Source: an uncultured Candidatus Izemoplasmatales bacterium
GTDB taxonomy: Bacteria; Bacillota_I; Bacilli_A; Izemoplasmatales; Hujiaoplasmataceae
Assembly (NCBI GenBank): GCA_964567465.1
Contig: CAZMMT010000001.1
Span: 27,794-91,793, forward strand
Direction of reading: 5' to 3'
Length of the DNA: 64,000 nucleotides
Made by a program: the position numbers and the translations under genes. The notes under the pieces were generated by a model, which was given only the letters and a program-made list of their open reading frames with translations, searched no databases and had not been told where the DNA came from. Shown piece after piece: positions 5,029 to 45,225 of this stretch (positions within the stretch are counted from its first letter, which is position 1; every line of letters begins with the position of its first letter).

Positions 5029-7839
5029 TTATGCCTTTAATATTTCCTTTAAATATTGACCTGTATAAGATTTTTTATTTTTAATGACTTCTTCCGGCGT
5101 TCCTAAAGCGATTATTTCTCCGCCTCTATCTCCGCCTTCTGGTCCTAAATCAATGATATGGTCGGCAACTTTAATTACGTCTAAATTATGCTCAATCAAT
5201 ATAACAGTAGCTCCTTTATCGACAATATCATTCAAAACTTCAATCAACTTTTTAATATCATGTGTGTGTAATCCTGTAGTCGGTTCATCTAAAATATAAA
5301 TCGAATGATTAGAAATCTTCTTATATAGTTCACTAGCGAGTTTAACTCTTTGTGCTTCACCACCAGATAGTGTTGTCGAAGACTGTCCTAGTTGTATATA
5401 TCCTAACCCCACATCATTAATGGTTTTTAAACGATTATAGATTTTCGGAAGGTTTTCAAAGAATTTTAAACTTTCCTCTACTCGCATATTCAACACGTCA
5501 GCTATAGTTTTACCTTTATATTTAACTTGCAATGTTTCTTTATTATATCTCTTACCATGGCATTCTTCACATTCCACATATAAATCTGGCATAAAGTGCA
5601 TTTCGATTTTTATAACGCCATCTCCTTGGCAATGTTCACATCTTCCGCCTTTAACGTTGAAAGAAAATCTCCCTTTATCATAACCTCTAAGCTTCGCTTC
5701 TTTTGTTCTTGCGAAAAGGTCGCGAATATGGTCAAAAACTCCAGTATAGGTAGCCGGATTAGATCTAGGGGTTCTACCAATAGCAGACTGATCTATATCA
5801 ATTATTTTATCGAATATTTGATAATTCTCAATTCTTTCTACTTTTCCAGCAGTTTCATTTCTTCTCGTAATCAAATTTGCTAAATTAGTATATAAAACAT
5901 CATTAACTAACGATGATTTCCCAGAACCTGAAACTCCAGTAACAACAGTAAAACATCCGATTGGAAAATCGACAGAAATATTTTTTAGGTTATTTTGAGA
6001 GGCTTTTTCAACCCTTAAATATCCATTATTATGTTCTCTTCTTTTTTTAGGAATCGGTATTTTATACTCGCCTCTTAAATACTTAGCGGTAATTGACTTT
6101 TCATCTTTTAATAACTCTGCAGGGGTTCCAACAAAAACAACTTCGCCTCCGTGATCACCTGCTCCTGGCCCAATATCAACAACTAAGTCACTATCCATAA
6201 TCATTTCATGGTCATGTTCAACAACAATCATTGTATTTCCTAAATCACGCATATCTTTTAATGTATTTATAAGTCTTCGATTATCTCTTTGGTGAAGGCC
6301 AATTGAAGGTTCATCCAAAACATACAAAACTCCAGTTAATCTAGAACCTATTTGTGTTGCTAATCTTATTCTTTGGGCTTCACCACCAGACAAAGTACCA
6401 GCAAGTCTTGATAATGACAAATAATCTAGTCCCACATTAATTAAAAATCCTAACCGAGCCTTCATTTCCTTAATAATTGGTTTAGCAATCTCAAATTCTT
6501 TTTCCGTTAAATTGATATTATTTAAGAAATCCACTAAGTGCAAAATACTTAATTCGGATATTTCATAGATATTCAATCCGTCTACATAGACAGATAAGGC
6601 TTCTTGATTGAGTTTTTTTCCATGGCAAACATCACACGGAATATCATTCATCATTGACTCAATCCAATTTCTAACAGCTTTAGATGTAGAACTTAAATAT
6701 CTTCTTTCTAAACTTGTAACAACACCTTCAAAAGGCCTTTTTGCATTGTGATACATGTTACCAGTTCTTGAAATATAACGGAAATTAATAAGTTCATTAG
6801 TACCGTATAAAATAACATTCTTTTGTTTTTCGGTCAAATCTCTAAATGGTTTATCTAAAGGTATATCCAAAGCGATAGCTGTTTGTTCAATTTGTTGATA
6901 ATAAAGCGAATCCATATTTGCATATTTTCTAAAGACATTTTCTCTTAAACTTAATCCTTGATCTGGCAATAAGATATTTGGATCAACTTTTCGTTTAAAT
7001 CCTAATCCCGCACAAGTTTCGCAAGCTCCGTAAGGAGCGTTAAAAGAAAATAGTCTCGGTTCTAATTCCGGTACTGTAAATCCACAAATAGGACAAGCGA
7101 AATGTTCGCTGAATAATTGTTCCTCGCCATTAATTAAAACTTTTACATGTCCTTCTCCAAGTTTCGATGCTACTTCTAACGAGTCATATAATCTTGATGT
7201 TGCACTCTCTTTAACGATGATTCTATCAATCACAACATCGATATCATACCTTAGATTCTTCTCTAATTTAATATCTTCATCTAACTCATGTTCTTCTTTA
7301 TTAATCCTTACTCTTGTATATCCATCTTTTCGTAAATTCTCAATAATATTTTTATGCGTACCCTTCTTTCCTCTTACAATTGGGGCTAAAATAACAAGCT
7401 TTTGACCATCGTTCTCTAAAACTTTATTAGTCATCTCTTGTATCGTTTGAGATTTTATTTCAATTTTATGAGTAGGACAATATACTCTACCAATTCTTGC
7501 AAAAAGCAATCTAACATAGTCATATATTTCCGTAACTGTTCCTACAGTGGACCTTGGATTGTTAGATGTGGTTTTTTGATCTATCGATATCGCTGGAGAT
7601 AAACCTTCAATAACATCAACATCCGGTTTTTCCATATTTCCAAGAAATTGTCTTGCGTAAGAACTCAAAGATTCGACGTATCTTCTTCTTCCTTCTTCAT
7701 ATATAGTATCAAATGCCAAACTGGTCTTTCCTGAACCGGAAAGACCTGTCATAACAATTAATTGATTTTTTTTAAACTCAAGGTCTATTGATTTTAAATT
7801 ATTCTCTCTAGCACCCTTTATAGTAATATAATCACTCAA
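5029..7839 (-). CDS. uvrA: Excinuclease ABC subunit A
   Basis: 936 aa. It has two ABC ATPase modules (GLSGSGKTS and GVSGSGKSS, each with LSGGE signatures) and zinc-finger CxxC pairs. Confidence 0.95.
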   Translation of the reverse strand: MSDYITIKGARENNLKSIDLEFKKNQLIVMTGLSGSGKTSLAFDTIYEEGRRRYVESLSSYARQFLGNMEKPDVDVIEGLSPAISIDQKTTSNNPRSTVGTVTEIYDYVRLLFARIGRVYCPTHKIEIKSQTIQEMTNKVLENDGQKLVILAPIVRGKKGTHKNIIENLRKDGYTRVRINKEEHELDEDIKLEKNLRYDIDVVIDRIIVKESATSRLYDSLEVASKLGEGHVKVLINGEEQLFSEHFACPICGFTVPELEPRLFSFNAPYGACETCAGLGFKRKVDPNILLPDQGLSLRENVFRKYANMDSLYYQQIEQTAIALDIPLDKPFRDLTEKQKNVILYGTNELINFRYISRTGNMYHNAKRPFEGVVTSLERRYLSSTSKAVRNWIESMMNDIPCDVCHGKKLNQEALSVYVDGLNIYEISELSILHLVDFLNNINLTEKEFEIAKPIIKEMKARLGFLINVGLDYLSLSRLAGTLSGGEAQRIRLATQIGSRLTGVLYVLDEPSIGLHQRDNRRLINTLKDMRDLGNTMIVVEHDHEMIMDSDLVVDIGPGAGDHGGEVVFVGTPAELLKDEKSITAKYLRGEYKIPIPKKRREHNNGYLRVEKASQNNLKNISVDFPIGCFTVVTGVSGSGKSSLVNDVLYTNLANLITRRNETAGKVERIENYQIFDKIIDIDQSAIGRTPRSNPATYTGVFDHIRDLFARTKEAKLRGYDKGRFSFNVKGGRCEHCQGDGVIKIEMHFMPDLYVECEECHGKRYNKETLQVKYKGKTIADVLNMRVEESLKFFENLPKIYNRLKTINDVGLGYIQLGQSSTTLSGGEAQRVKLASELYKKISNHSIYILDEPTTGLHTHDIKKLIEVLNDIVDKGATVILIEHNLDVIKVADHIIDLGPEGGDRGGEIIALGTPEEVIKNKKSYTGQYLKEILKA

Positions 7840-19135: not shown

Positions 19136-20014
19136 ATGTTTCTAATCGTACACAATCCTCTATCGAGTAATCGCAAGTCTAAAAAAACCACATATAAGTA
19201 CGTAAAATTCTTTAAAAAATATAAAATACCTTTCCGTTTAAGATCGACTTTAAAAATTAAAAACTTAAACGTATTTCTTGATTCTAATCCAGAAATCACT
19301 GATATTTTATACTTAGGTGGAGATGGTTCAATCAATCACTTAATCAATAATGTTGATGTCAATGATATCAAGCAAAACATATATCTTGGCAAAAGCGGTT
19401 CCGGAAATGACTTTTTACGTACGTTAAAGAAATTTAAAGAAGCCAATATTACTCTAGGTGAAGCGAAAACCAACATTGGCTCTACTAAATTTATTAACGG
19501 ATGCGGACTAGGTTTCGACGGGTTAGTTTGTCATTATGTTAATAACGACAAGAAAAAAGGAAAATTATCTTATTTTATAAACGTTTTTCGTTCCATAATT
19601 AAGTATCAACCAGTTGAAATCGATATAAATGTTGATGGTAAGGATTACCATTTCAAAAAAGTGTTTATTTCCGCAATTCAAAACGGAAGATATTTTGGTG
19701 GAGGCATGAAAGCTACTCCAAACGCCGATCCAACAGATGATAATTACATAATCTGCGTTGCTCATAACTTATCAAAATTAACCCTTCAACTTCTACTATT
19801 AACAATTTATCCTGGATGGCATAGATTCATAAAAGGAAAAGTAACGATGTTAACCGGAACAAATATTAAAATTAAACATCCTTCAGAAACCTATTTCCAA
19901 GCAGACGGTGAAGTAATGGGTAATATTAATGAAGTCGAAATTAAACCTATTCAAAAACGAACATTCATTGCTTTTAACAAAAAAGAGTTTAAAAATAAAT
20001 CAGCCACTAAATGA
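19136..20014 (+). CDS. Diacylglycerol kinase catalytic-domain family lipid kinase
   Basis: 292 aa. LGGDGSINHL is the DAGK_cat GGDG motif. A paralogue lies at 39067-39975. Confidence 0.75.
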   Translation: MFLIVHNPLSSNRKSKKTTYKYVKFFKKYKIPFRLRSTLKIKNLNVFLDSNPEITDILYLGGDGSINHLINNVDVNDIKQNIYLGKSGSGNDFLRTLKKFKEANITLGEAKTNIGSTKFINGCGLGFDGLVCHYVNNDKKKGKLSYFINVFRSIIKYQPVEIDINVDGKDYHFKKVFISAIQNGRYFGGGMKATPNADPTDDNYIICVAHNLSKLTLQLLLLTIYPGWHRFIKGKVTMLTGTNIKIKHPSETYFQADGEVMGNINEVEIKPIQKRTFIAFNKKEFKNKSATK

Positions 20015-22940: not shown

Positions 22941-23009
22941 ATAATATCACTCCTAGCATTAATATTTTATCACAGTAATATTTTTTTTAAAAACATATTT
23001 ACTTTAAAA

Positions 23010-23035
23010 GAAAAAACTAAGAGAAAATCTCTTAG
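23010..23035 (-). terminator. Rho-independent terminator ending the ispF-containing operon
   Basis: CTAAGAGA-aaa-TCTCTTAG hairpin (23017-23035), with an A-run at 23011-23016 on the plus strand giving a U-tail on the minus strand. Confidence 0.75.
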
Positions 23036-23038
23036 CAA

Positions 23039-23530
23039 TTAATCTAACATATAATCTGACTTCTCTAAAATCACTACAGATTCGCAGATAATTCCTTCTT
23101 CTCTGCCTACAAATCCTAAGCCTTCAAATGTAGTAGCCTTGACTGATATTAAATGGATATCACAATTAAGGATTGAAGCTATGTTTTCTCTAATAGCTTT
23201 AATATAAGGTCTAATCTTTGGTTCTTGCAGAGAAACCATTGTATCGATATTTGATACTTCATATCCTTTTGAACTGATGTAATTAAATACTTCTTTCAAT
23301 ATTAATCCTGAATCATAATCTTTATATTTCGGATCATCATCGGGGAAAAATTTACCTAAATCTCCAAGAGCTAAAGCTCCCAACATAGATTCAGCAATCG
23401 CATGTAACAAACAATCTCCGTCAGAATAACCGACAGTACCTTTATAATGTGGTATTTCAATACCGCCTAAAATAAATTTTGATCCTTCTTGTAATGGATG
23501 AACATCTTTTGAAAATCCTATTTTAATCAT
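23039..23530 (-). CDS. ispF: 2-C-methyl-D-erythritol 2,4-cyclodiphosphate synthase
   Basis: 163 aa. GFSKDVH...SDGDCLLHAI...LGDLGKFFP motifs are present. It overlaps ispD by 4 nt. Confidence 0.95.
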   Translation of the reverse strand: MIKIGFSKDVHPLQEGSKFILGGIEIPHYKGTVGYSDGDCLLHAIAESMLGALALGDLGKFFPDDDPKYKDYDSGLILKEVFNYISSKGYEVSNIDTMVSLQEPKIRPYIKAIRENIASILNCDIHLISVKATTFEGLGFVGREEGIICESVVILEKSDYMLD

Positions 23531-24177
23531 AACAAAGCCTCCAAAATCTTTATGTCAAGTTCAGTGGTTAATTTAATGTTATTTTCATTGCCTTCTAATA
23601 TTATAACATCTTCTTGTAGTTCTTGCATATATAAACTTGCATCGTCACTATAAGAATTTTCATTAACCATAGCTAACTCATAAGCCTTAATAATTTTATC
23701 TGTAGTAAAAGCCTGAGGTGTTTGTAATAACATATAATTATCTCTATTAACATAACTCTTCAATTTTCCGAATGAAACTTTAGCGATAGAATCTTTTACT
23801 TTTTTGGCTAAAACACAAGGATTTTCCTTTACTGTAATCTTCAACTTTTCAATATCAAATTTATCAATAAAAGGACGAGCACCATCATGAATCAAAACAA
23901 ACTTATTGTTGACTTTCTTTAAACCGTTGTAAACACTTTCTTGTCTAGTGATACCACCTAGAGTTATTTTTATATCTTTTCCTTTTAGTAATTCTTTAAC
24001 GTGAGATTGATCTTTTTCAGTTGTCACAATAATTATTTCCGAGAATGAAGAGTCTTTTAAAAAATACTCAACAGAATATTCTAAAATTGACTTTTGATGT
24101 ATTTCATAAAAAACTTTATTATAACCCAAGTTCAAACGGGTTCCTTTTCCTGCCGCTAAAATGATTACCGAATACAT
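23527..24177 (-). CDS. ispD: 2-C-methyl-D-erythritol 4-phosphate cytidylyltransferase
   Basis: 216 aa. The N-terminal ILAAGKGTRL nucleotidyltransferase motif and HDGARPF are present. Confidence 0.9.
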   Translation of the reverse strand: MYSVIILAAGKGTRLNLGYNKVFYEIHQKSILEYSVEYFLKDSSFSEIIIVTTEKDQSHVKELLKGKDIKITLGGITRQESVYNGLKKVNNKFVLIHDGARPFIDKFDIEKLKITVKENPCVLAKKVKDSIAKVSFGKLKSYVNRDNYMLLQTPQAFTTDKIIKAYELAMVNENSYSDDASLYMQELQEDVIILEGNENNIKLTTELDIKILEALL

Positions 24178-24180
24178 AGC

Positions 24181-25353
24181 CTATCCTCCGAAAATTGAAT
24201 AGTTTTGTTTGTTATTTCTAATCGCTTCTTCTAAAGCTTTATTACTTAAGCTTATAAACTCTGTGATTTCAATTGATTGCCACGGATCATTCTTAATTAT
24301 TCCGATATTTGGATAAACAATTTGGACTATCCCACCAACATTAATTCTAACGTTAATTAAATCGCCACCACTGACCAAAGCTCTATGAAGATTAGCATAT
24401 CTTTGTTCATCTTCAATTATTACTGCAAATTGAATTCCCGTAACCCTAAAAACTGTATAATTATCCTTCGCAAAATGAAACTTCATTTGCTTAATATATT
24501 CAGCTATCATTAAATTTCCAACGTCTCTACCAAAACGTTTGTTAATATCGGGAATATTAGTTAGATGCATCATTGCTAAATAGAATGGTTTTCTTTCTTT
24601 TCTCAAGTATGAAATTTGATTTGTCAAATCATCTTCACCCGGCAAACCATCTACTAACTGAAGTGATGTTTCTGGAAATAACTTTATATCTAACTTCTTA
24701 ATAACAGATATTAAGTAGTCTAATTTATCATGACTAAAGATTTTTAATTTTTCTTCAACCCAAGTGTATGTATCACCTATTTTGAGACGATACTTGTGTA
24801 AAAACTCAGGTATCTTCTTACTGACTTTTTTCAAGTTTATAATGTATGAGGCTTTATCCTCTGGATGTAAGTAACTACTATACTCCTCTAGTGTCATTTG
24901 CGGTTTATCTGCATTAATTATTTTTAAAACTTCATCAGTCATAAACAAACCATTTCGGTCATCATCATAAAAAATTAAGCCATCATTTAGCAGTCCAATT
25001 GTATGAATAAATCTCTTTCTTAAAAGTTCTGATGAATCCCTTGTATTATTTAATTCTTTTTCTAATTCAAAAAAATCATAATCAGTTAAGTTCTGAGTGA
25101 TCTTAATCTTATTTTTAAAACTAATGGCCAAAACAATAACAATTAAATATAAGTAATAATGAAGATATTCTTTTATATTTATATCCTCTAAGAAAACTAG
25201 AAGATCTGGAAAGAACTCAATTATAACAAATAAAATCAAGGAAAATATAACTAAAACCAATTTCCAGATACGAAGTTTTTTATATAAAATTGTACTGAAT
25301 ACAAATAGCAAGACAATTATTAAAATCGAGCCATAATATAGATAATCATTCAT
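24181..25353 (-). CDS. Membrane protein with about 3 TM helices, a PAS-like domain and a degenerate GGDEF domain
   Basis: 390 aa. A hydrophobic N-terminus is followed by a PAS-like stretch (LNDGLIFYDDDRNGLFMTDEVL...YLHPEDK...) and a GGDEF-like alignment. In that alignment the signature reads RVTGIQFAV where R.GGDEF is expected, and the upstream acidic and GH/GD positions are also changed. Confidence 0.6.
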   Translation of the reverse strand: MNDYLYYGSILIIVLLFVFSTILYKKLRIWKLVLVIFSLILFVIIEFFPDLLVFLEDINIKEYLHYYLYLIVIVLAISFKNKIKITQNLTDYDFFELEKELNNTRDSSELLRKRFIHTIGLLNDGLIFYDDDRNGLFMTDEVLKIINADKPQMTLEEYSSYLHPEDKASYIINLKKVSKKIPEFLHKYRLKIGDTYTWVEEKLKIFSHDKLDYLISVIKKLDIKLFPETSLQLVDGLPGEDDLTNQISYLRKERKPFYLAMMHLTNIPDINKRFGRDVGNLMIAEYIKQMKFHFAKDNYTVFRVTGIQFAVIIEDEQRYANLHRALVSGGDLINVRINVGGIVQIVYPNIGIIKNDPWQSIEITEFISLSNKALEEAIRNNKQNYSIFGG

Positions 25354-25365
25354 AATTTTCTCCTA

Positions 25366-27708
25366 TTATTTCTTAATGCTAGTTCTAACATAGATAATTG
25401 GATAGAAATACGTTAATAATATTCCAAAGAATAAGAAGCTATAAAACATTGTTACATAACTGTTCCCAACTAAGTAAGTTCCTCCTAGAATAACTAAGAA
25501 GATGAACCCCCAGATAAAAGTTAATCCATTTGTGATTATTCTAAACAATTTGGTATTTCGATAATCTGATTTCATGTCGTATCGATGATAAAGATAAACA
25601 ATAGGTTGATTAATTATCACCGAGGTTAAAAATACCAAAATAATAAATCCTAGAAAAATATCATCTGAATAAAAGTTATTAAATTTTGATATAACTATAG
25701 ATAAGATTGAAAAGATAAGGAGACCCGAATTCAATACAATTTCAAACCAACTTATGTGCTCATAAGTTTGATATTTTATGATGCTTACTATAATGCTTAG
25801 ACAAAAAGCTACTGGAAAAATATAAACATTGGGATAATAATTACTTAATAACGAAGCGATTGAATAGATAAATACATGCATAAAGAATAATTTTACTCCA
25901 AAATACTTATACTTTGATGTCAAATACTCCTCTTGAACAAACTCTTGATAATCATCGAGTTTAAATGCATCTACAGCTTTATAAAGCAGTTCTAAATCTC
26001 CGCGATATTTCAATGAACCTGATTCCAATACTGATTTAAAACTTGATTTTTTAAGCAATAAATCACTTAATTTGTCATTTGTTGTATAAATAGAAAGGTC
26101 TGAATTATTATATCTTCCATGGTGAACTATTATGTTCTTTCCTTTAGTTCTAATATAATAATTACTTTTCCCGATGTGAAAGTTAATATGTATTTCTTTA
26201 GTACCTAGCTTTTGGTAATCATAATTATGTCTTATCATCATCATGATTTCATCATTAGAGAAATACTCAAAATCATCGGTATTATCTCCATAATAGAGTT
26301 TATCTTCAATCTTATCTGCATAAATGATGCTTTGGTTAATCGCTCCAAAAAATCCTGCTTCCGGACGAATAAATTCTCCACCTATGAATAAATTTTCAAA
26401 TACTTGGATATGTTCAAAAATTTCAACATTAATCATTTCATTTATTGATAAGTTTCTTCTTAGTTTGGAATCTCTAAGCATCGACAAATATTTAAATGAT
26501 TTCCCGATTTTCAAATCGCCAATGAATTTTCTAAGTTTAGGAAGATAAATGTCAACTAACTTCAATAAGTCTTCCTTGCTAGGAACAACTTCTCCGACAT
26601 AAGTAAAATCAATACATAATAAACCTTCTTTTTTACGCATATCTTGATTTATAGCTTTGCTATAATTATACATCCTCAATAGTTTTAATGGGTTTAAATT
26701 ATCATTCTTGAAATAATATATCAAATCTTCAATACCAATATCGGTAAGCTTTGTGTTTAAAGCTAAATATAATGTAGAAATTTTCTGATCACTATTGATG
26801 TTTGGATAATACAAATTCAATAGTTCCAGATCTTTACTTGATATATCAAAATATTTTTCATAAAAATCAATCGGATTTCCGCTGGCGAAAAAATATTTTG
26901 CATAAATCAAGTTATTTTCCGTATCAATAATACATTCAATCTTTTTATCTTTTACAACAAACTCTTTAACCGAAGTTGATAAAAATGCTTTTGGATTAAC
27001 TAAAGTAATCTTTTCAATAGCTTTTAAGCAAATGTCTTTATAAGAATTATTTAGTAGATAAAAACCTGATTCTAATCCTAAAAAGTAGTTAGAAAAAAAA
27101 CTATAGGCATTTACTTGCTCTATCGGTAATCCACTTATAAAGTTGTTGTATGTAAATTCTTTAATTAGTTCATCGCTAGAAAAATATTTAACTAAAAGTT
27201 CCTCTAAAGAATAGTCTCCCCATTCAATCATCAAAGAGGATAGAGTATAATCCGTATTAATTAGCATATTTAAGAATTGTTCTTTATAATTTATATAATG
27301 TTTTTTCAAAATCTCGAAAAAGTTATCTATTTCTTTGATATTTTTAGGATAATGTCTTACGAGATATATTCTAAAACCTTCTAATGAACTAAGTTGCTTA
27401 TGAAAATCACTATTTTGATTTATCAATGTATTTTCATCAATTTTTTCATAAGAAAGCGACTTAACTAAACCTAAATTATCTAAATATGCATATAAAAGCC
27501 CTGATTCATCTAAACCAGAAACGATATTGTTGCGATTGTAAGCGAGATTAAATTTTTTATCCGCAAAAGATAAACGAACCTTTTCAAAGTCACTACTCTG
27601 ATGAGAATCTTGAAGTACTAAAACCTTTCTCATCTTCCTCGATAAAAACAAAGCGACGGTAAGAGCATATAAATCTTCACCAACTACTACTAAATCGTAT
27701 ATTTTCAA
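25366..27708 (-). CDS. Multidomain membrane protein with a CrtI/amine-oxidase-like domain carrying a degenerate dinucleotide motif, an SCP2-like domain and a polytopic TM tail
   Basis: 780 aa, with a TTG start at 27708 and the RBS GGGGGTGA. The N-terminus reads DLVVVGEDLYALTVALFL...VLVLQD. A CrtI-like C-terminal motif, FIGGEFIRPEAGFFGAINQS, follows. An SCP2-like segment reads DLSIYTTNDKLSDLLLKKSSFKSVLESGSLKYRGDLELLYKAVDAF. About 5-6 hydrophobic helices complete the protein. Confidence 0.55.
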   Translation of the reverse strand: MKIYDLVVVGEDLYALTVALFLSRKMRKVLVLQDSHQSSDFEKVRLSFADKKFNLAYNRNNIVSGLDESGLLYAYLDNLGLVKSLSYEKIDENTLINQNSDFHKQLSSLEGFRIYLVRHYPKNIKEIDNFFEILKKHYINYKEQFLNMLINTDYTLSSLMIEWGDYSLEELLVKYFSSDELIKEFTYNNFISGLPIEQVNAYSFFSNYFLGLESGFYLLNNSYKDICLKAIEKITLVNPKAFLSTSVKEFVVKDKKIECIIDTENNLIYAKYFFASGNPIDFYEKYFDISSKDLELLNLYYPNINSDQKISTLYLALNTKLTDIGIEDLIYYFKNDNLNPLKLLRMYNYSKAINQDMRKKEGLLCIDFTYVGEVVPSKEDLLKLVDIYLPKLRKFIGDLKIGKSFKYLSMLRDSKLRRNLSINEMINVEIFEHIQVFENLFIGGEFIRPEAGFFGAINQSIIYADKIEDKLYYGDNTDDFEYFSNDEIMMMIRHNYDYQKLGTKEIHINFHIGKSNYYIRTKGKNIIVHHGRYNNSDLSIYTTNDKLSDLLLKKSSFKSVLESGSLKYRGDLELLYKAVDAFKLDDYQEFVQEEYLTSKYKYFGVKLFFMHVFIYSIASLLSNYYPNVYIFPVAFCLSIIVSIIKYQTYEHISWFEIVLNSGLLIFSILSIVISKFNNFYSDDIFLGFIILVFLTSVIINQPIVYLYHRYDMKSDYRNTKLFRIITNGLTFIWGFIFLVILGGTYLVGNSYVTMFYSFLFFGILLTYFYPIIYVRTSIKK

Positions 27709-27735
27709 GTTCTCACCCCCTTAATATCAAATCAA

Positions 27736-27744
27736 ATTATAACA
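27736..27744 (-). promoter_or_regulatory. Extended -10 element for the 780-aa gene operon
   Basis: The reverse complement reads TGTTATAAT, 27 nt upstream of the TTG start at 27708 and just downstream of the cdaA terminator. Confidence 0.5.
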
Positions 27745-27770
27745 TAAACAAGGTAATATTTCTATTAGCC

Positions 27771-27797
27771 AAAAAAATAAAGCGCTAAAAGCGCTCT
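27771..27797 (-). terminator. Rho-independent terminator of cdaA
   Basis: AGCGCT-aaa-AGCGCT hairpin (27781-27795), with an A-run at 27771-27777 on the plus strand giving a U-tail on the minus strand. It overlaps the cdaA stop codon. Confidence 0.7.
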
Positions 27798-28539
27798 ATT
27801 CCATTTTTAAAAATTTTTCAAAGTAGAGATTCAATGTTTCTCTACTAATATTGTACTCAATTTCCTTATTGACAGTAATACTTACATGTCCTGTTTCTTC
27901 AGAAACAACAATTGTAAAAGCATCACTTTGTTCACTAATACCTATTGCGGCTCTATGTCTAGTTCCAAAGTGCATAGGTAAGTCAGTTCTCTTTGTTGAA
28001 GGATAATATGCTTTTGCACAAAGAATTTTATCGCCTCTAATAATAACAGCTCCATCATGTAAAGGTGCATTAGGAATAAAAATCGAAGTTAGCAATTCTT
28101 TAGAAACATCCGCGTTAAGCATTAAAGCTTTGTTAACGATTTTTGATAAATCTACATTTCTTTCAACTGTTATCAATGCGCCAATTTGATTTTTAGATAA
28201 AAATTCCACGGCTTGATATAAATGATCAGCTAAATCATTATTAACAAAATAAGCTTTATCTCTCGACGACTTTATTCCTGTTTTTTTAGCAAACTTATAG
28301 ATATCTTCAGTAAATATCATAAAAATCAAATAAATTACCGGTAAATAAACAACTATTCTTAGCCAAAGAGGTAGATTTACTACTTCTTCTGTAATCAAAA
28401 AGTACAAACTTGCAAGCGATAAAACCAAGAAAATAATCTTGGTAATTCCAGCTTTAATGTATGTAACTTTTGATTCCAACTGCAAAACAAACACTGCATA
28501 CAAATATGTAATTATTACCAATAATTCAAAAATACTCAT
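27796..28539 (-). CDS. cdaA: Diadenylate cyclase (c-di-AMP synthase), membrane-anchored CdaA type
   Basis: 247 aa. Three N-terminal TM helices precede a DAC domain with the motifs DGAVIIRGDKI and GTRHRAA. Confidence 0.9.
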   Translation of the reverse strand: MSIFELLVIITYLYAVFVLQLESKVTYIKAGITKIIFLVLSLASLYFLITEEVVNLPLWLRIVVYLPVIYLIFMIFTEDIYKFAKKTGIKSSRDKAYFVNNDLADHLYQAVEFLSKNQIGALITVERNVDLSKIVNKALMLNADVSKELLTSIFIPNAPLHDGAVIIRGDKILCAKAYYPSTKRTDLPMHFGTRHRAAIGISEQSDAFTIVVSEETGHVSITVNKEIEYNISRETLNLYFEKFLKME

Positions 28540-28588: not shown

Positions 28589-29053
28589 CTATTTTGCAAC
28601 ATCTGTCTTCTTGAAAACGATATCTAATGCAAAATATGCTATCGGTATTAAAAGTGCTGATGCAAAGAAAGGTGCTATTGATTTAGCAATAGGGTAAACT
28701 GCATAATCAATTCCAATCCAATTAATAACAATAAAATCAAATAATTCAGCTAATAAACTACTTACCAATAATCTAGATAAGAATACTAAAATGACAATTG
28801 AAAATTGCATAGTATTCTTGTTTTTTGGTTTAAAGGTAAAATATGCGTTTGCAAAATAAGAAAAAATTGAAGCCCCAATAAAAGCAATTGAGTTTGAGAA
28901 AAATGCACCGCCAATAAATCCTGTTGTATTCTCATTATAAATTAAAGAGTAAATCAATAGGTGAATAAACGTATTTAATATTCCAATAATTCCAAAAGTT
29001 AAAAATTTCTTAGTCAAAAAATGCTTTTTAACAAATAACCATATCTTATTCAA
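28589..29053 (-). CDS. GtrA-family membrane protein, a putative polyprenol-phosphate-sugar flippase
   Basis: 154 aa with 4 TM helices and an N-terminus KFLTFGIIGILNTFIHLLIY typical of the GtrA family. It overlaps the upstream GT2 gene by 8 nt. Confidence 0.75.
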   Translation of the reverse strand: MNKIWLFVKKHFLTKKFLTFGIIGILNTFIHLLIYSLIYNENTTGFIGGAFFSNSIAFIGASIFSYFANAYFTFKPKNKNTMQFSIVILVFLSRLLVSSLLAELFDFIVINWIGIDYAVYPIAKSIAPFFASALLIPIAYFALDIVFKKTDVAK

Positions 29054-29972
29054 ATGTTATATCCTCCGATGTTTCTTCCACCAAGTAAATAGGTCGATTG
29101 AGGATTTGCTTACGATTAGAGTAGAGCAAATATATCACCACGTATGAAAAAATGCTTAGAACTATAAATAATAACGACATATGAAGACTTAAAATCATAC
29201 TTGTTAAATCTATTACATTAGTGAAATACAAAACTAAATCTGCAGCCACTAACAACAATCCCATAAAGAAGAATATTACTGGCAAAACTAATAGAATCGT
29301 TGAAAATTGATTCATTCCGTTAAAAGCGTATTTAACTAGAGATTTAAAACTCCATGAACTTTTTCCATGTTGTCTTGGGATAAAATCATATTCTATACAT
29401 TTTCGTGGATATCCTACCCAAGAGAAAATACCTTTAATAAAACGATAATTATCTTTAATTTTCAAAAATGCATCAACAACTATCTTGTCCATCAATTGAT
29501 AATCTTTTGCGCCATTGTCTAAAGGTTTTTCGGTATAAGCATTATAGATTTTATAAAATATATTCGCAAAAAATGTTCTTAATTTCGGTTCGCCTTTTCT
29601 AGATTTGCTTCTAGTATAAACAATTTTGTATCCTTCTCTATAATGTTTAACCATTTCCGTAATTAATTGTGGCGGTTGTTGCAAATCACAATCAATAATA
29701 ATTATAAAATCTTTATCCCTTGAACTTTCTAATCCGGCATGCATTGCTGCTTCCTTACCAAAATTTCTTGACAAAGATATATATTTTACCATTTTATCTT
29801 TTTTATTAAGCTTTATGATTTCTTCTAAAGTTTTATCTTTTGATCCATCATTGATAAACAAGATATCAAATTCGATATCATCGTATTTAAGATATTTTGT
29901 TGCTTCTTCATAAAATAACGCAATATTCTCTTGCTCATTATATGCAGGAACAATTAATCTTGCTTTTTTCAT
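29046..29972 (-). CDS. Family 2 glycosyltransferase, polyprenol-phosphate glycosyltransferase type (CsbB/GtrB-like)
   Basis: LIVPAYNEQENI, FINDGSKD and DCDLQ motifs are followed by two C-terminal TM helices. The ATG at 29972 has the RBS GAGGA and lies 4 nt after the yfhO TGA. It is preferred over the track's start at 30002. Confidence 0.8.
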   Translation of the reverse strand: MKKARLIVPAYNEQENIALFYEEATKYLKYDDIEFDILFINDGSKDKTLEEIIKLNKKDKMVKYISLSRNFGKEAAMHAGLESSRDKDFIIIIDCDLQQPPQLITEMVKHYREGYKIVYTRSKSRKGEPKLRTFFANIFYKIYNAYTEKPLDNGAKDYQLMDKIVVDAFLKIKDNYRFIKGIFSWVGYPRKCIEYDFIPRQHGKSSWSFKSLVKYAFNGMNQFSTILLVLPVIFFFMGLLLVAADLVLYFTNVIDLTSMILSLHMSLLFIVLSIFSYVVIYLLYSNRKQILNRPIYLVEETSEDITFE

Positions 29973-29976
29973 ATAA

Positions 29977-32900
29977 TCATCCTCTTTTTTTCTTATTAAC
30001 AATTAATGGCGTTATAAAAATCAAACCATAGATTGCCAAAGATCCTAAACTAATATACAAGCCTAAGTCCATGTATTTTGGCGAAAATTTCATAGTTATC
30101 TCTACTTGAGAAGTGCCTTTAGGAATAACTATTCCAAGAAAACCTCCGCTTACACTAATTGTATCATATACTTGGTCTGATGTGAATTGCCAATCTTCAG
30201 AATAAGCAACTGGTATAACTACTATTTGGTCTTTTTCTGAACTTATTAAATTATTGTACTTCAAATCAATTTTTGCATTGTTAATGCTTAGATATTTGTT
30301 ATCAATATTATTTTCTATAAGCATATCATCTAAATCTTCATAAGTTTCTGCAATATATCTTAATCTTAAATTATAGAGATCATAATAACTATACATACCT
30401 GAAGTTTTAAAAATATAAAGTTTATCTGGTTTAGTCTCATAATGATAGTACCCATCTAAAACTTCATATCTGTCACCAAACTCATCGACAATAAATACTT
30501 TTTCAAACGGTTTTTCAATACCCATATCAAAAACTAAAAATCCTTTTTCACTAGGTAAATCAAGTTGAGAAAGATCATAGGTTAAATATGCAGCAAACTC
30601 AAGAGCTCTTTCATTTCTCATTTTGAACACCGGAGCTGTTGTTAAATTTTCATTTTTTTCAACAAATATTTTTACCGGTCTTTTCCAAAATTCACATTTA
30701 ATATGATAAGGTGACTTTATTTCATTTTCACCGACTCCAAAACTATATACACTACAAGCTTGTCTAGTCCCGTCACTAAACTCCATAAAAACTTGGCTTA
30801 AATTCGAAACTAAATCATTGTTATCAAAGAACTTAATATATGCAGCTCCAACAGTAAAGTTGATGTCTATCGTTTCTTCATCGTATAGGTAAAATTCTCT
30901 TTCTATCTCATCATTAAATCCCGTTGTCATAACGGTTGTACCGCTTATTACTGTATAAGAAGAAATTGATTGCATATTAGTCGAACTAAAATCATCTAAG
31001 TAATTTAAGTCATATTGACTCATGTCATATTCTTTTTCAGTATCTATAATCGCTGACATAAGAAACGCTTTTTGTCTGACTAAAGCAGAATTTATATCTT
31101 GCAAACTGTTATTTACTTCCATATCAATATCATCGGAATAAAAATAAGTATCGAAAACTTTAAAACTTGATGCGTAATTCATTTCATACAATTTATATTT
31201 TTCATTTTCAGCAACTATACTGAAATAATCCTCTTCAAAATCAAATTCATATGTAGCGTCAACTAGAACATACTTATAGCCTAAAAAATGATTTATGTAA
31301 AAACCAAAATAATTCATTCTACTCTTTGACTGATATTCATTTGAGTTAAAAATCATTTTTCCAATACCGTTTGTTTCCGAATCTGTCCAAGAATGGAAGA
31401 TATAAGTATTGGTTGGAAAAACGGTCATTCGATTGAAATTGGTTTTATCTAAGCCGATTCTACTTAAATCTATATATACGCGATAGAATTCTTCTTGATC
31501 TAAATTAGCTTCTAAAAATTCATTAACATCATGGCTTCTTTCAAAAACATCTATCTTATCCCTAATAGAAAAAGGACCAGAATAGATATATCCTAATGCA
31601 ACTATAACTTCAATCCATACAAACCACTTAATTACTGTAAATTTCTTAAGCCATCCAAAAACAATAATAATTACAAGATAAACTATCGATACTCCAATCA
31701 TTACAGTATCTGCGGTTAATGTTTCTCTTCCCGCATATCTAATATTAATATCTAATTTTTGAATATAATAATAAACTAAGAAACTTGACAATAAGATTAG
31801 TAAAGATGCAACTATTGTCATTTGTTTCATTTTTATTTTTTCGAAACCGTAGTGATCAAATACGTGTGCTAAAGCTAAAACTTCAATCAGCGGTAAAAGG
31901 TTAATCCATCTAGTATAAGGTTTATCAAGTGTCCCTGAAAAAACATATGAAAAAAGTGGAAAGAACATAAATACTAGTGCAATTAGAAAACTCACTTTAT
32001 AAACTCTACTAATCTTATCCTTCATGAAGAAAATTAAACTCATGTAGGCAAACCCAATTATTGTTATATATAGTGATGCATGTTCTAGGCCGTAATCATT
32101 TTCAAAACCATAGAATCCAATTGGTTTTTGTTCCGCAACTAATTTTGCTAAGTATCTAATGTATATTTCTGGTCGGAATAATTTCAACTCATAAGAACCA
32201 ATGTTTATAATCCAAGCATTGAAAGTTGCGGTGCTACGATAAGTTTCTTCTAAAATAAAATTGATTGATGGCAATAAAATCACAGCTGCCATTCCTACTC
32301 CTAGAAGTAATAAGCCAAGGAAAATAACTCCTTTTTTCATAAAATCAAAAACATTAAATTTATAGCGTTTGAAATACTCTAAAATAAAGGCGAATGATGT
32401 AAATGCCAAAATCATATACCCCAAATAGAAATTATAAAAAATGATTATAAGCGCGAAAAGAGGTAGTATCCATCTCTTCTTGTTAAAGAAGTAGTGAATA
32501 ACTATTAATGATAGCGGAAGATAAAAGGCCATTGAAAGGAATGCTGGAAAAGCCATAAAACTTACCATGCCACCACTAACAAAATAGAAAATACTAGCCC
32601 AAAAAATTGTTCTATTCTTTCTTCCTTCAAGATGTAAGAAGTATGCTAACGCCATTACCCCAGCGAATATCTTGAATAACTCCATGATAGAATATGCTAT
32701 CTCAACATTCATTACATAACTAAGTATAAAGGTTAAAAATGTAAATATATCTAATGGAATATAATAGATATCTGAGAAGAACGATGCTCCAAGATAATTA
32801 TTTAAATTAAATAATGATAAAGAACCTCCTTTTACAGAAGCTATGAAATCATTCATTATTGTATAATATTGCAAAATATCGTCAGAAAAATTGTTATAAA

Positions 32901-33063
32901 AGCTGTTATTAACAATGATTATACCGGCTTGAATTATAAATAAAGCAGTAAATACTACTAAGGCTAGAATCTTAAAAGTTTTTCTTCTACTCTTGAAACT
33001 AGCTGAGAAGTAATTAGAAAAAGAATCTCTAATTTTGATTAAAAAAGTTCTAATATGTGTCAT
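29977..33063 (-). CDS. yfhO: YfhO-family polytopic membrane glycosyltransferase
   Basis: 1028 aa. About 500 aa with many TM helices are followed by a large extracytoplasmic region and a terminal TM helix (LGLYISLGSLAIYGLIFITPLIV). The architecture and the partnership with CsbB-like and GtrA-like genes fit YfhO. Confidence 0.7.
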   Translation of the reverse strand: MTHIRTFLIKIRDSFSNYFSASFKSRRKTFKILALVVFTALFIIQAGIIIVNNSFYNNFSDDILQYYTIMNDFIASVKGGSLSLFNLNNYLGASFFSDIYYIPLDIFTFLTFILSYVMNVEIAYSIMELFKIFAGVMALAYFLHLEGRKNRTIFWASIFYFVSGGMVSFMAFPAFLSMAFYLPLSLIVIHYFFNKKRWILPLFALIIIFYNFYLGYMILAFTSFAFILEYFKRYKFNVFDFMKKGVIFLGLLLLGVGMAAVILLPSINFILEETYRSTATFNAWIINIGSYELKLFRPEIYIRYLAKLVAEQKPIGFYGFENDYGLEHASLYITIIGFAYMSLIFFMKDKISRVYKVSFLIALVFMFFPLFSYVFSGTLDKPYTRWINLLPLIEVLALAHVFDHYGFEKIKMKQMTIVASLLILLSSFLVYYYIQKLDINIRYAGRETLTADTVMIGVSIVYLVIIIVFGWLKKFTVIKWFVWIEVIVALGYIYSGPFSIRDKIDVFERSHDVNEFLEANLDQEEFYRVYIDLSRIGLDKTNFNRMTVFPTNTYIFHSWTDSETNGIGKMIFNSNEYQSKSRMNYFGFYINHFLGYKYVLVDATYEFDFEEDYFSIVAENEKYKLYEMNYASSFKVFDTYFYSDDIDMEVNNSLQDINSALVRQKAFLMSAIIDTEKEYDMSQYDLNYLDDFSSTNMQSISSYTVISGTTVMTTGFNDEIEREFYLYDEETIDINFTVGAAYIKFFDNNDLVSNLSQVFMEFSDGTRQACSVYSFGVGENEIKSPYHIKCEFWKRPVKIFVEKNENLTTAPVFKMRNERALEFAAYLTYDLSQLDLPSEKGFLVFDMGIEKPFEKVFIVDEFGDRYEVLDGYYHYETKPDKLYIFKTSGMYSYYDLYNLRLRYIAETYEDLDDMLIENNIDNKYLSINNAKIDLKYNNLISSEKDQIVVIPVAYSEDWQFTSDQVYDTISVSGGFLGIVIPKGTSQVEITMKFSPKYMDLGLYISLGSLAIYGLIFITPLIVNKKKRG

Positions 33064-38541: not shown

Positions 38542-39070
38542 CTATTATTTCATCAACCCTTTCCAAATTTATTCCTAACATATTTAAATTTCTTAGCAAG
38601 GCTTTTCCATTCACATATGGAATGTTTAGCTTTTCACATAAAATACTTCTTTTATTAGCAGAGTTTTCATTACTAATAAGCCCTCTTCTAAGAAGGTCTA
38701 ATCTTGTAATTAAATCTCTTGTATAATCAAGGCTAATTAAATTATCTAAAGCAAACACAATGTCTTCTCTATTACAATGCTCGATTCCAACTTTTGTATT
38801 TGTTTTATTTAATGCTTTCTTTTTATTAACATATGCAATCTTAAAATTACCTTTTGTATCTAAAATCTCATTTGTAATTTTCTTGCCTGGAAAGTCTGGA
38901 TCGAGAAATAAAATAACATCCCTAATTAAACTCGTCTGATAAATTAAATTTAAAGTTTCTTTAGAAATTTCGCTTCCATTTGTTACTATACAATCAATAT
39001 TAGGATAAATTGACTTAATCTTTTGTTCATCATGAGTTCCTTCGACAACGATTACTTGATTATAATTCAT
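38525..39070 (-). CDS. rnmV: Ribonuclease M5 (TOPRIM)
   Basis: 181 aa. VIVVEGTHDE and LDPDFPGKKI are TOPRIM motifs. The position upstream of rsmA matches that in Bacilli. Confidence 0.85.
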   Translation of the reverse strand: MNYNQVIVVEGTHDEQKIKSIYPNIDCIVTNGSEISKETLNLIYQTSLIRDVILFLDPDFPGKKITNEILDTKGNFKIAYVNKKKALNKTNTKVGIEHCNREDIVFALDNLISLDYTRDLITRLDLLRRGLISNENSANKRSILCEKLNIPYVNGKALLRNLNMLGINLERVDEIIDEFKS

Positions 39071-39975
39071 TGATTTTTAAAATACCTTTTCTTTATTTTG
39101 TGCGGAACAATTATCTCGATAGCTTTGCTAGCGACTTCAATAATTTGATTACCCTGACCGCCATATTCACCATCAATATTCCATCTTGCTTTTGACTCGG
39201 TTTTTATTTCCATTTTTTCAGTTTTAAACCTAGTAACTAAAGGAGTAGACCAAAAAGGAAAAATAAAAGCTAATGCATAAAGATAAAAGTTAAATGGAAA
39301 GATATTTTTGTATAAAACAACATTGACTAATCCATCATCTAAACTCGGTTTATAAATCATATTTATTCCTGCTACTCTTTTAGAATTAATTATCATTACT
39401 AGCGAAAAAACACCTTTATAAACTTCATCATTGTGATGAATTGTCATCTTCATTTTTGGAATAGTAAAAACTTCTTCAAAAGCTTTAATAATATAAGCTA
39501 TATAGCCTATTTTTTTCTTTAATTTTGAGTCAGTAACATAACTAATGTCAATAAAAGCTCCAGATGCTGTAACATAGCAAGAATATCGATCGTTTGTTTT
39601 AACAATATCCATTTTAACCGGTATACCTTTTAAAATAATATCAACTGATTTTTCTACATTTTTAGACAATCCTAAACTCATACCAATATCGCAACATGTC
39701 CCTGCAGGAATGTATCCTATTTTCGGTCTCTTTTCATATCGCATCAACCCATTTACGCACTCATTAAATGTACCATCTCCACCAACAATAACTAACATAT
39801 CATAGTTTTCTTTACAAGCTATTTCCGCTAAGTCTGTGGCGTGATTTGGATACTCTGTCGCAAAGACAAAAATATCATGAAAATGAGGTTTAAATCTTTC
39901 CATGACATATTCTAACTTTTTTACAAAGTTTTGCTTACCACTTTTAGGGTTGTAAATAAGCATTAGTTTATCCAT
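39067..39975 (-). CDS. Diacylglycerol kinase family lipid kinase (DagK/YegS-like)
   Basis: 302 aa. LIYNPKSGK and VIVGGDGTFNE motifs are present. It overlaps rnmV by 4 nt. Confidence 0.8.
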   Translation of the reverse strand: MDKLMLIYNPKSGKQNFVKKLEYVMERFKPHFHDIFVFATEYPNHATDLAEIACKENYDMLVIVGGDGTFNECVNGLMRYEKRPKIGYIPAGTCCDIGMSLGLSKNVEKSVDIILKGIPVKMDIVKTNDRYSCYVTASGAFIDISYVTDSKLKKKIGYIAYIIKAFEEVFTIPKMKMTIHHNDEVYKGVFSLVMIINSKRVAGINMIYKPSLDDGLVNVVLYKNIFPFNFYLYALAFIFPFWSTPLVTRFKTEKMEIKTESKARWNIDGEYGGQGNQIIEVASKAIEIIVPHKIKKRYFKNQ

Positions 39976-42474: not shown

Positions 42475-43050
42475 CTATATAGCATCCTTTTCATTACTAG
42501 TATTATATTTATTCATAATTTCTTCAAAACGAACTCCATTAATAAAATCAGTCATTAAATTAACAACGTCAATCATAACATCATCAAGAACCTTCAACTC
42601 AGCTTTAGAAAAATCACTTAAAACATAATCTTTCATTTCTTTATTATCTGATTTATCAATTCCGATTCTTAAACGATTAAAACTTTCGGATCCTAAATGA
42701 GTTAATATTGATTTAATTCCATTATGCCCGCCCGATCCGCCTTTATATCTCAATCTAAGTTTACTAAACGGTAGAGCAACATCGTCATAAATTACTAATA
42801 CGTCTTCTAAATCTACATTATAGTATTCAACTATTTTTAAAATCGCATAGCCGGAATTATTCATAAAGGTTTTAGGTTTTGCTAAAACACAATCATCAAA
42901 CTCAAAAATCTCAGAATTAAATTTAACTGAATTTTTTGCTTTAATTTTGTAAATTTGGGCAAATTTATCCACCGCTATAAAACCAATATTATGCTTGGAG
43001 TTAGCGTATTTTTTACCTGGATTTCCTAATCCGACAATTAATCTTTTCAT
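42475..43050 (-). CDS. pth: Peptidyl-tRNA hydrolase
   Basis: 191 aa. LIVGLGNPGKKY..SKHNIGF and GGHNG motifs are present. Confidence 0.95.
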   Translation of the reverse strand: MKRLIVGLGNPGKKYANSKHNIGFIAVDKFAQIYKIKAKNSVKFNSEIFEFDDCVLAKPKTFMNNSGYAILKIVEYYNVDLEDVLVIYDDVALPFSKLRLRYKGGSGGHNGIKSILTHLGSESFNRLRIGIDKSDNKEMKDYVLSDFSKAELKVLDDVMIDVVNLMTDFINGVRFEEIMNKYNTSNEKDAI

Positions 43051-43670: not shown

Positions 43671-43693
43671 TAAAACTTAATCTCCCCTTATTG

Positions 43694-45123: not shown

Positions 45124-45135
45124 GTTTTCCTCCCT

Positions 45136-45181: not shown

Positions 45182-45225
45182 CAGGTATAAATATATATTT
45201 TATTGGTGTTGTTTTTATTAATTTT

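Follow-up and report, generated by a model that had tools for sequence, protein, structure and literature searches.

A conserved Izemoplasmatales gene module places a predicted pseudo-flavoprotein and a pseudo-GGDEF membrane protein ahead of ispD and ispF

Gene layout and expression signals of the four-gene unit

The stretch of DNA analyzed here, a 64-kb window of contig CAZMMT010000001.1 from an uncultured Candidatus Izemoplasmatales bacterium, contains 4 consecutive genes in which 2 uncharacterized membrane proteins precede 2 enzymes of the MEP (2-C-methyl-D-erythritol 4-phosphate) pathway of isoprenoid synthesis. The window is AT-rich (29.7% G+C), all coordinates given below without another locus label are positions within it, and all genes of the four-gene unit lie on the minus strand. 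The gene for a protein of 780 amino acids (aa) and its product are referred to as X780 (25366-27708), or X in relatives, and the gene for a 390-aa protein and its product as Y390 (24181-25353), or Y; loci and proteins of relatives carry labels of the form L### and P####, respectively. Downstream of these 2 open reading frames follow ispD (23527-24177), encoding the 216-aa 2-C-methyl-D-erythritol 4-phosphate cytidylyltransferase (Pfam IspD, 1.8e-48), and ispF (23039-23530), encoding the 163-aa 2-C-methyl-D-erythritol 2,4-cyclodiphosphate synthase (Pfam YgbB, 3e-58). Both enzymes, which act at steps 3 and 5 of the MEP pathway, respectively, clear their NCBIfam equivalog cutoffs, IspD with 187.6 bits against 181.3 (TIGR00453) and IspF with 194.4 bits against 116.45 (TIGR00151). 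As detailed below, X-Y-ispD-ispF is a real, conserved, and undescribed module, for which a role in lipid sensing tied to isoprenoids is plausible.

The gene upstream of X780 is cdaA (27796-28539, minus strand; stop codon TAG at 27798-27796), encoding a diadenylate cyclase of 247 aa (Pfam DAC, 5e-40; TIGR00159 CdaA, below its cutoff of 188.8 with 179 bits). It is the final gene of a YfhO-GT2-GtrA-cdaA unit and lies outside the four-gene unit in the window. On its 3' side is an intrinsic terminator (27771-27800, minus strand), in which the hairpin AGCGCT-TTT-AGCGCT (27795-27781) is followed by TTATTTTTTT down to 27771; the stem can be extended by A-T and G-T pairs, with a T-run after it. The promoter of X780 (27736-27764, minus strand) consists of a -35-like TAGAAA (27764-27759), a spacer of 17 nucleotides (nt), and the extended -10 element TGTTATAAT (27744-27736), and reached 10 of 12 plus the TG extension in a consensus scan. 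The ribosome-binding site GGGGGTGA (27713-27720) leads to a TTG start codon (27708-27706). Within the unit, the 12-nt gap between X780 and Y390 holds the ribosome-binding site AGGAGA (25359-25364), the final codons of Y390 contain the GGAGGA (24184-24189) that serves ispD, which starts after a gap of 3 nt, and ispD and ispF overlap by the 4 nt ATGA. An intrinsic terminator follows ispF (23006-23036, minus strand), with the hairpin GCTAAGAGA-TTT-TCTCTTAGT at 23036-23016 and a subsequent T-run, and the extended -10 element of the next unit, which begins with yutD, marks the downstream boundary (TGATAAAAT, 22964-22972, minus strand). The cdaA terminator, the extended -10 element, the ribosome-binding sites, the 12-nt gap, the 4-nt overlap, and the ispF terminator had all been proposed in an earlier sequence-only reading of this DNA, and direct reading placed each of them at the same positions.

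Two more exact matches to TGTTATAAT lie inside the unit. The copy in Y390 (25220-25228) is common only to a 93%-identical relative. The copy in ispD (23600-23608), which precedes the ispF start by 70-78 nt, occurs only within the closest clade (L001-L005, L007, and L015) and could be a minor internal ispF promoter or merely conserved coding sequence. Across the whole window, TGNTAHAAT occurs 43 times compared to 26.5 expected occurrences, a number that none of 100 shuffles reached, and the matches are mostly intergenic and ahead of genes; this genome thus seems to rely as a rule on promoters with an extended -10 element and a weak -35 box. A search for a leader RNA element or riboswitch with Rfam at gathering thresholds returned nothing in the whole window, which also contains no tRNAs.

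Conservation of the unit boundaries

For the comparative analysis, 63 Izemoplasmatales loci, one per species-level genome, were collected through the alignment of X780 homologues, together with approximately 8 deeper relatives. The database labels of the 63 loci are nearly all Izemoplasmatales, Tenericutes, or Mycoplasmatota. One of them, L028 (JAQTTF010000072.1), is a 2.9-kb contig with typical Izemoplasmatales X and Y genes that is filed, probably through misbinning, under a 'Candidatus Paceibacterota' metagenome-assembled genome (MAG). In every informative locus of the 63, the genes follow the order cdaA-X-Y-ispD-ispF as far as the contigs reach. An apparent truncation of ispD with loss of ispF in the close relative L022 (10320-10430 of that locus) was rejected, as it corresponds to a run of N in the scaffold.

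Terminators were counted under a strict definition, that is, a perfect stem of at least 5 bp with at least 3 G-C pairs and at least 6 T in 8 positions. An earlier definition, which allowed for mismatches and G-T pairs, was dropped since it fired in 42% of coding controls. With the strict definition, a terminator was found after cdaA in 51 of 58 loci and after ispF in 33 of 44, compared to 0 of 57 after X, 0 of 49 after Y, 1 of 44 after ispD, and 0 of 1070 coding control windows. Furthermore, 19 of 45 sequences of the cdaA hairpin show covariation from C:G to U:A with pairing kept, and the stem of the ispF hairpin varies in sequence between lineages. Promoters were counted as extended -10 elements (TGnTAhAAT) at most 200 nt upstream of a gene. 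Such an element precedes X in 45 of 58 loci, at positions -14 to -44 relative to the X start, and yutD in 35 of 45, whereas the corresponding numbers are 5 of 55 for Y and 1 of 45 for ispD, at a coding background of 7/570 per 100 nt. The gap between X and Y measures 2-30 nt in all 55 loci, and in most loci the further junctions are at most 3 nt long or overlapping. Of 61 loci, 36 start X with TTG, 17 with ATG, and 4 with GTG, whereas each of the neighboring genes starts with ATG in approximately 78-98% of loci; this preference for TTG suggests that the translation initiation of X may be weak on purpose.

Since the boundary terminators and the promoter of X are conserved and the internal ones are not, the 4 genes are predicted to form a unit with boundaries conserved by selection. 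We infer computationally that X-Y-ispD-ispF is a single transcription unit, independent of cdaA, with a promoter at its head and a terminator at its tail. Some read-through from cdaA may occur, given that its hairpin is short. The proposal of the sequence-only reading that the 4 genes are one translationally coupled transcription unit is thus supported by the conserved terminators, promoter, and gaps: no internal promoter or terminator is conserved, the internal copies of TGTTATAAT being limited to close relatives, and the gene-neighborhood comparison that had been recommended along with this proposal found homologues of X and Y linked to ispD-ispF across the Izemoplasmatales as well as in deeper relatives.

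X780 is predicted to combine a flavin-less CrtI-type fold with an SCP2-type and a membrane domain

All 104 close full-length homologues of X780 are approximately 780 aa long, originate from this lineage, and are annotated as hypothetical. An exact-sequence look-up found the window protein not to be on record, and a PDB sequence search returned no match at E<=1. Its AlphaFold2 (AF2) model (predicted local distance difference test 88.5, predicted template-modeling (TM) score 0.82) comprises 3 parts: a CrtI/amine-oxidase fold without flavin motifs (residues 1-475; model and Foldseek), a putative SCP2-type alpha/beta domain (residues ~485-590; Pfam match at residues 497-583 and model), and 6-7 transmembrane helices (residues ~600-780; model). 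The best Foldseek matches of the N-terminal domain were the gamma-carotenoid desaturase 4rep (6.9e-15, TM (target) 0.64) and CrtI 4dgk (7.8e-13), closely followed by NicA2, by monoamine oxidases, and by Rab-GDI/REP proteins, which lack flavin (3cph, 1vg0, 3p1w). For the middle domain, Alkyl_sulf_C reached 27.5 bits (cutoff 27, E 4.1e-6) and SCP2 17.1 bits (cutoff 21.3, E 0.007); the SCP2-type match recurs in many X780 homologues and is clear in a paralog (SCP2, 9.4e-10). The N-terminal domain has no Pfam match at E<=10, compared to a score of 3.6e-23 on Amino_oxidase for the paralog P0243, and the C-terminal membrane domain has none even at E<=10; neither of these 2 domains corresponds to any Pfam or NCBIfam model.

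The flavin fingerprints of the superfamily have been replaced in X780. At the positions of GxGxxG and of the acidic residue that ends beta-2, the window protein reads GEDLYA and ...LQD, and instead of the C-terminal flavin-contact motif PGGG it has RPEAG, of which P449 and E450 are invariant. Across the clade, these sites read G-x-[DN]-x-x-[SAG], QD, and RPE[AS]G, in contrast to G[SA]G[LIV]GGL (GSGLGGL), EKH, and PGGG in paralogs. Constraint has shifted to other sites, with 20 of the 62 invariant residues clustering in a helical subdomain (residues 116-205, including TSLMIEWGD) away from the flavin site. With all 3 flavin fingerprints lost, X780 is a predicted pseudoenzyme and hardly a flavin oxidoreductase. 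On the basis of these sequence features, we conclude that X780 is a putative membrane-anchored pseudo-flavoprotein with a predicted lipid-binding domain, which by analogy to Rab-GDI in the same fold most likely keeps just the hydrophobic ligand pocket. The earlier description as an SCP2-like lipid-binding membrane protein holds with respect to the predicted SCP2-type domain and membrane helices; what it missed is that the protein consists mainly of a predicted CrtI-fold pseudoenzyme of 470 residues.

An exhaustive profile search revealed a paralogous family (P0243, P0246, and P0265) with the same three-part architecture and canonical flavin fingerprints. The genes of these paralogs with intact motifs for flavin adenine dinucleotide (FAD) (L065, L066, L073, and L074) adjoin TetR, ArsR, or LytTR regulators and never cdaA, a Y-like gene, or ispDF; this stand-alone family, which is likewise uncharacterized, probably represents an inducible membrane oxidoreductase with a hydrophobic substrate. 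The X profile also reaches proteins of approximately 490 aa that span the N-terminal domain alone.

This relationship raises the question whether X780 could itself still be an enzyme, that is, a membrane desaturase, isomerase, or oxidase that acts on an isoprenoid lipid with a non-canonical flavin or another cofactor and is regulated by Y390. The full CrtI-type fold is kept and modeled with high confidence, and the protein is under strong constraint along its full length, including new invariant motifs (TSLMIEWGD and RPEAG) in place of the old ones. In addition, a few early-branching members (P0104 and P0228) keep GxGxx[SA], and the flavin-intact paralogs share the SCP2 and membrane domains. 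However, nearly all members have Asp or Asn in place of the second glycine of GxGxxG, and dinucleotide binding by a Rossmann fold is difficult to square with an acidic residue at its pyrophosphate turn. The ribose-binding Glu has likewise changed to Gln and PGGG to PE[AS]G, and no flavin-family Pfam model matches at E<=10. We therefore regard a catalytic role of X780 as very unlikely.

Y390 is a membrane protein with PAS and degenerate GGDEF domains

The AF2 model of Y390 begins with 3 transmembrane helices (residues 3-87), after which a conserved to invariant linker leads to a PAS domain (residues ~125-220; Pfam PAS_3, 0.0017) and a pseudo-GGDEF domain (residues ~240-388; Pfam GGDEF, 8.7e-9). 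The assignment of the latter to the GGDEF fold is well supported by its Pfam score (35.8 bits against a cutoff of 23.8), by PDB profile matches to 3icl (1.7e-6) and 3mr0, and by Foldseek matches of the model to GGDEF domains with a TM (target) of approximately 0.7. However, the catalytic GG[DE]EF motif has degenerated to TGIQF in the window protein (residues 304-309) and reads [ST]-G-I-[QERKN]-F in 113 close and 7 distant members, with GGIDY in L075. Furthermore, His, Gln, Glu, or Lys stands in place of the first metal-binding Asp, and the RxxD inhibitory site is absent, the corresponding residues being AKDNY in the window protein and ARE[NKH]N in the clade.

As the catalytic motif is lost, Y390 is not a diguanylate cyclase, and its sequence indicates that it cannot make cyclic di-guanosine monophosphate. 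Several databases name Y390 homologues "diguanylate cyclase", yet none of them carries the catalytic motif, so that this annotation is corrected here. The sequence-only reading had seen a PAS sensor protein in Y390, which agrees with the PAS domain found, and had overlooked the degenerate GGDEF domain.

The neighboring cdaA gene and its history

In all 58 informative Izemoplasmatales loci, cdaA lies directly upstream of X, and the 2 genes also adjoin in the deeper relatives L064, L067, L068, L071, L072, and L077. Moreover, L058, L017, L064, and L072 have no terminator between them, with gaps of 15-44 nt. It is therefore conceivable that X and Y belong to a cyclic di-adenosine monophosphate (c-di-AMP) module as membrane partners or regulators of CdaA that replace CdaR and GlmM, with Y resembling the sensor half of GdpP. 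The cdaA-cdaR-glmM operon is conserved in Firmicutes, CdaR and CdaA are in contact via their transmembrane domains, and GdpP consists of transmembrane helices, a PAS domain, a degenerate GGDEF domain, and a DHH/DHHA1 region (PMC10243994). However, cdaA and X are parted by the conserved terminator and promoter in most loci, and Y shows no GdpP-specific sequence similarity beyond the generic PAS/GGDEF level and no DHH domain. Neither the YbbR domain of CdaR nor the phosphoglucosamine mutase domains of GlmM were found in X780 or Y390, and a true GlmM is encoded in L075.

The arrangement in L075/L076 bears most directly on this question: DAC-GlmM-GlmS is followed by a terminator and TGTTATAAT, and then by X-MGS-Y-ispD-ispF with gaps of 2-12 nt. 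In L075 (2982-12478 of that locus; 25% G+C), Y is 544 aa long with an extra N-terminal region, and yutD begins 9 nt after ispF; upstream of DAC lie a gene for an ankyrin-repeat protein and one for a protein of 1402 aa. X thus heads a unit with ispDF even with cdaA 3 kb away. In Bacillus subtilis, cdaA-cdaR-glmM is followed by glmS. X-Y-ispDF was probably once located downstream of cdaA-(cdaR)-glmM-glmS and came to abut cdaA upon the loss of cdaR, glmM, and glmS in wall-less lineages, which would account for the terminator and the promoter that are conserved between cdaA and X. Because of the L075 order, in which glmM and glmS, a terminator, and a promoter separate cdaA from X, the adjacency of the 2 genes is best explained by the loss of cell-wall genes, and we consider the reading of X and Y as CdaA partners rather improbable.

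Linkage to ispD-ispF and a possible role in lipid sensing

In the deeper relatives, the cluster is kept at an X identity of 23-28%, with cdaA being 36-44%, ispF 45-54%, and pgi 52-59% identical. L064, L067 (a MAG labeled Acholeplasmatales), L068-70, L071, L072, and L077 all have DAC-X-Y and then ispD-ispF. The upstream genes in L067, L068, and L077 encode ribonucleotide reductase/HflX instead of YfhO-GT2-GtrA.

In the window, the unit upstream of X780 (28589-33063, minus strand) encodes a YfhO-family membrane protein of 1028 aa, a GT2 glycosyltransferase, and GtrA with overlapping stop and start codons, and it ends with cdaA. This arrangement is found in most Izemoplasmatales loci and is absent in L054, L056, L057, and the deeper relatives. 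By analogy with known systems, YfhO-GT2-GtrA of this wall-less bacterium can be read as a surface glycosylation system of the polyprenyl-phosphate type. CsbB/YfhO-type systems use undecaprenyl phosphate, which makes polyprenyl lipids relevant to this locus. The Pfam scans by which the genes of the 64-kb window were annotated found no further gene of the MEP pathway, for a polyprenyl synthase, or for carotenoids.

The reading that we tentatively favor is that X and Y form a membrane lipid-sensing pair that is made from the ispD-ispF mRNA and whose ligand is most plausibly a polyprenyl or other isoprenoid lipid; we would put it somewhat below an even chance. X would bind a hydrophobic membrane ligand via the former substrate pocket, the SCP2 domain, or both, with a polyprenyl/isoprenoid lipid as the most plausible choice. 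Y would turn the ligand state of X into a cytoplasmic signal through its PAS domain and its pseudo-GGDEF domain of nucleotide-binding type, and the shared mRNA of X-Y and IspD/IspF would tie this device to the expression of the MEP-pathway enzymes. While the operon layout with its conservation, the domains, and the loss of catalytic motifs were read from the sequences, the interaction between X and Y, the identity of the ligand, and the output are inferred, and the simplest choice of ligand would be an isoprenoid or polyprenyl lipid in view of the fold family, the Rab-GDI precedent, the IspD/IspF partners, and the upstream YfhO-GT2-GtrA unit. In its boldest form, this proposal would make X780 the first bacterial flavin-less CrtI-fold binder of polyprenyl phosphate or an isoprenoid lipid that resembles Rab-GDI, which together with Y390 reports the lipid-carrier pool and feeds back on MEP flux or on the diadenylate cyclase. 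We see this as unlikely; if true, a Rab-GDI-like X780 and Y390 would constitute a novel class of lipid sensors made up of 2 pseudoenzymes, in bacteria without a wall.

Several observations weigh against a link between X-Y lipid sensing and ispD-ispF. With regard to the proteins, the match of X780 to carotenoid desaturase structures is no better than that to amine oxidases, and its SCP2-type Pfam scores lie at or below the curated cutoffs. With regard to the locus, a gene for 5-formyltetrahydrofolate cyclo-ligase is located 3' of Y in 8 of 47 Izemoplasmatales loci (L024, L031, L034, L036, L045, L047, L048, and L050), 2 of which, L047 and L048, have no ispD between Y and ispF and lack it from the locus. 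The cyclo-ligase gene is also found between Y and ispD in L068 (10387-10917 of that locus) and, together with a nitroreductase gene, in L077 (10469-12353 of that locus), and an MGS-like gene separates X from Y in L075. No terminator follows Y in the loci with the cyclo-ligase insertion. In L064, where cdaA and X are not separated by a terminator, Y is parted from a fused ispDF gene by a spacer of 487 nt that carries an TGATATAAT of its own; this spacer (5459-5944 of that locus) is non-coding and contains, besides TGATATAAT, a repeated element (GGAAAACCGCTATAAAT...). Furthermore, synteny extends over the whole region from cdaA to pgi (...yutD-nifU-pgpA-S1-pgi), in which some genes have promoters of their own. 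The functional link rests on gene order and on domain inference: co-transcription is weak evidence of shared function given that unrelated genes occur inside the unit elsewhere, and the synteny from cdaA to pgi implies that the conserved order is in part inertia, so that adjacency need not mean shared function.

These observations are what would be expected if X and Y were a real signaling pair with no isoprenoid link and ispD-ispF merely shared a housekeeping promoter with it, the gene order being maintained by synteny inertia. Unrelated genes often share one promoter in the super-operons of Firmicutes. Here, cyclo-ligase, nitroreductase, and MGS-like genes are tolerated within the unit without terminators, the conserved block from cdaA to pgi includes units with their own promoters, L064 uncouples ispDF through its own promoter, and the remainder of the window consists of ordinary housekeeping genes near oriC. 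However, X-Y-ispD-ispF has stayed intact despite wholly different upstream genes (ribonucleotide reductase/HflX in L067, L068, and L077 and glmM-glmS in L075), the coupling is very tight in most loci, and the fold family of X together with its SCP2 domain points to hydrophobic, isoprenoid-like ligands. We consider such an operon of convenience possible, though on the doubtful side, and continue to prefer the lipid-sensing pair. The suggestion of the sequence-only reading that the 4 genes form an undescribed isoprenoid-lipid module thus stands in that the module is conserved, that no paper on it was found, and that the SCP2 domain and the desaturase fold fit; it has to be qualified in that the link to ispDF is not exclusive and that nothing found points specifically to the carotenoids or sterol-like lipids it had named.

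Significance and genomic context

Our literature search found nothing on the X-Y module, on either protein, or on isoprenoids in Izemoplasmatales. While the domains of X780 and Y390 belong to known superfamilies, the combination of a flavin-less CrtI fold with SCP2 and membrane domains, the obligate pseudo-GGDEF partner of X, and the conserved placement of X-Y in front of ispD-ispF have no description in the literature searched. Two catalytically dead domains, one of the CrtI fold and one of the GGDEF fold, have stayed linked to ispD-ispF across a deep divergence among free-living Bacilli that lack a wall, and their unit adjoins a polyprenyl-phosphate-dependent glycosylation unit as well as a c-di-AMP cyclase. 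The sensing of isoprenoid lipid-carrier pools in bacteria and the post-transcriptional control of the MEP pathway are poorly understood; the locus offers a testable candidate in a lineage that has cultured members. Should the isoprenoid link be synteny only, X and Y would still be 2 new protein families, and the case would illustrate how cell-wall loss reshapes the cdaA-glmM-glmS neighborhood.

With regard to the wider context, the window includes the chromosomal origin (42475-48313), where a minus-strand group of pth, a jag/KhpB-like gene, yidC, and rnpA is separated by 0.5 kb from dnaA and dnaN, which are encoded on the plus strand. The distance between the four-gene unit and dnaA is approximately 20 kb, and the orientation of the unit matches that of the leftward replichore. 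Two paralogous lipid kinases of the DAGK_cat/YegS type flank the region (19136-20014, plus strand, and 39067-39975, minus strand), and one of the 2 is also conserved downstream of pgi in the distant relatives L067 and L068. Finally, a compact shikimate/aromatic operon (52743-59627, minus strand) encodes 3-deoxy-D-arabino-heptulosonate 7-phosphate synthase, a type II dehydroquinase, a fused shikimate dehydrogenase-kinase, chorismate synthase, 3-dehydroquinate synthase, 5-enolpyruvylshikimate-3-phosphate synthase, and prephenate dehydrogenase.

Comparison with known systems

In overall fold, the first 470 residues of X780 match the CrtI/CrtN phytoene (carotenoid) desaturases and the amine-oxidase superfamily (PF01593). 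In contrast to these enzymes, X780 lacks the 3 flavin fingerprints as well as a Pfam match, is fused to an SCP2 and a polytopic membrane domain, and is not encoded in a carotenoid gene cluster. Rab-GDI and REP, which are eukaryotic and soluble and bind Rab proteins, represent a flavoprotein fold without flavin that binds geranylgeranyl groups. They provide a precedent for a flavin-less prenyl-lipid binder in the fold of X780, although X780 has no detectable sequence relationship to them, so that the likeness is an analogy of mechanism and not one of membership. X780 has its three-part architecture in common with the FAD oxidoreductases with SCP2 and membrane domains (P0243, P0246, and P0265), whose membrane domain is homologous to that of X780 and whose flavin motifs are intact.

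Y390 shares the order of transmembrane helices, PAS domain, and degenerate GGDEF domain with the N-terminal region of GdpP (YybT; PMC10243994). It differs from GdpP in ending at residue 390 without DHH/DHHA1 and in having 3 instead of 2 predicted transmembrane helices. A closer relationship to GdpP was considered and set aside as architectural only, since Pfam, NCBIfam, PDB profile, and Foldseek searches gave generic PAS/GGDEF matches. With the degenerate GGDEF domains of LapD and FimX, both of which are among the Foldseek matches, Y390 has a non-catalytic motif in a GGDEF fold in common, but it lacks an EAL domain and the conserved RxxD I-site.

With regard to gene order, there is a parallel in the radA-disA-yacL/ispD-ispF region of B. 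subtilis, where yacL is located directly ahead of ispD-ispF; as in the window, genes for a diadenylate cyclase and a membrane protein precede the 2 MEP-pathway genes. The cyclase is of the CdaA type here instead of DisA, X780 and Y390 are unrelated to YacL, and a terminator follows the cyclase gene in the window. In B. subtilis, radA is followed downstream by disA and yacL (PMC6755099), and sigma-M co-activates IspD, IspF, and DisA, sustaining undecaprenyl phosphate (bioRxiv 10.1101/2024.01.17.576085). A signaling or stress-related neighbor of ispD-ispF is therefore not unprecedented, contrary to the earlier view that these genes are normally alone, fused to each other, or beside housekeeping genes, and the co-induction by sigma-M provides a precedent for an envelope-homeostasis logic behind such a neighborhood.

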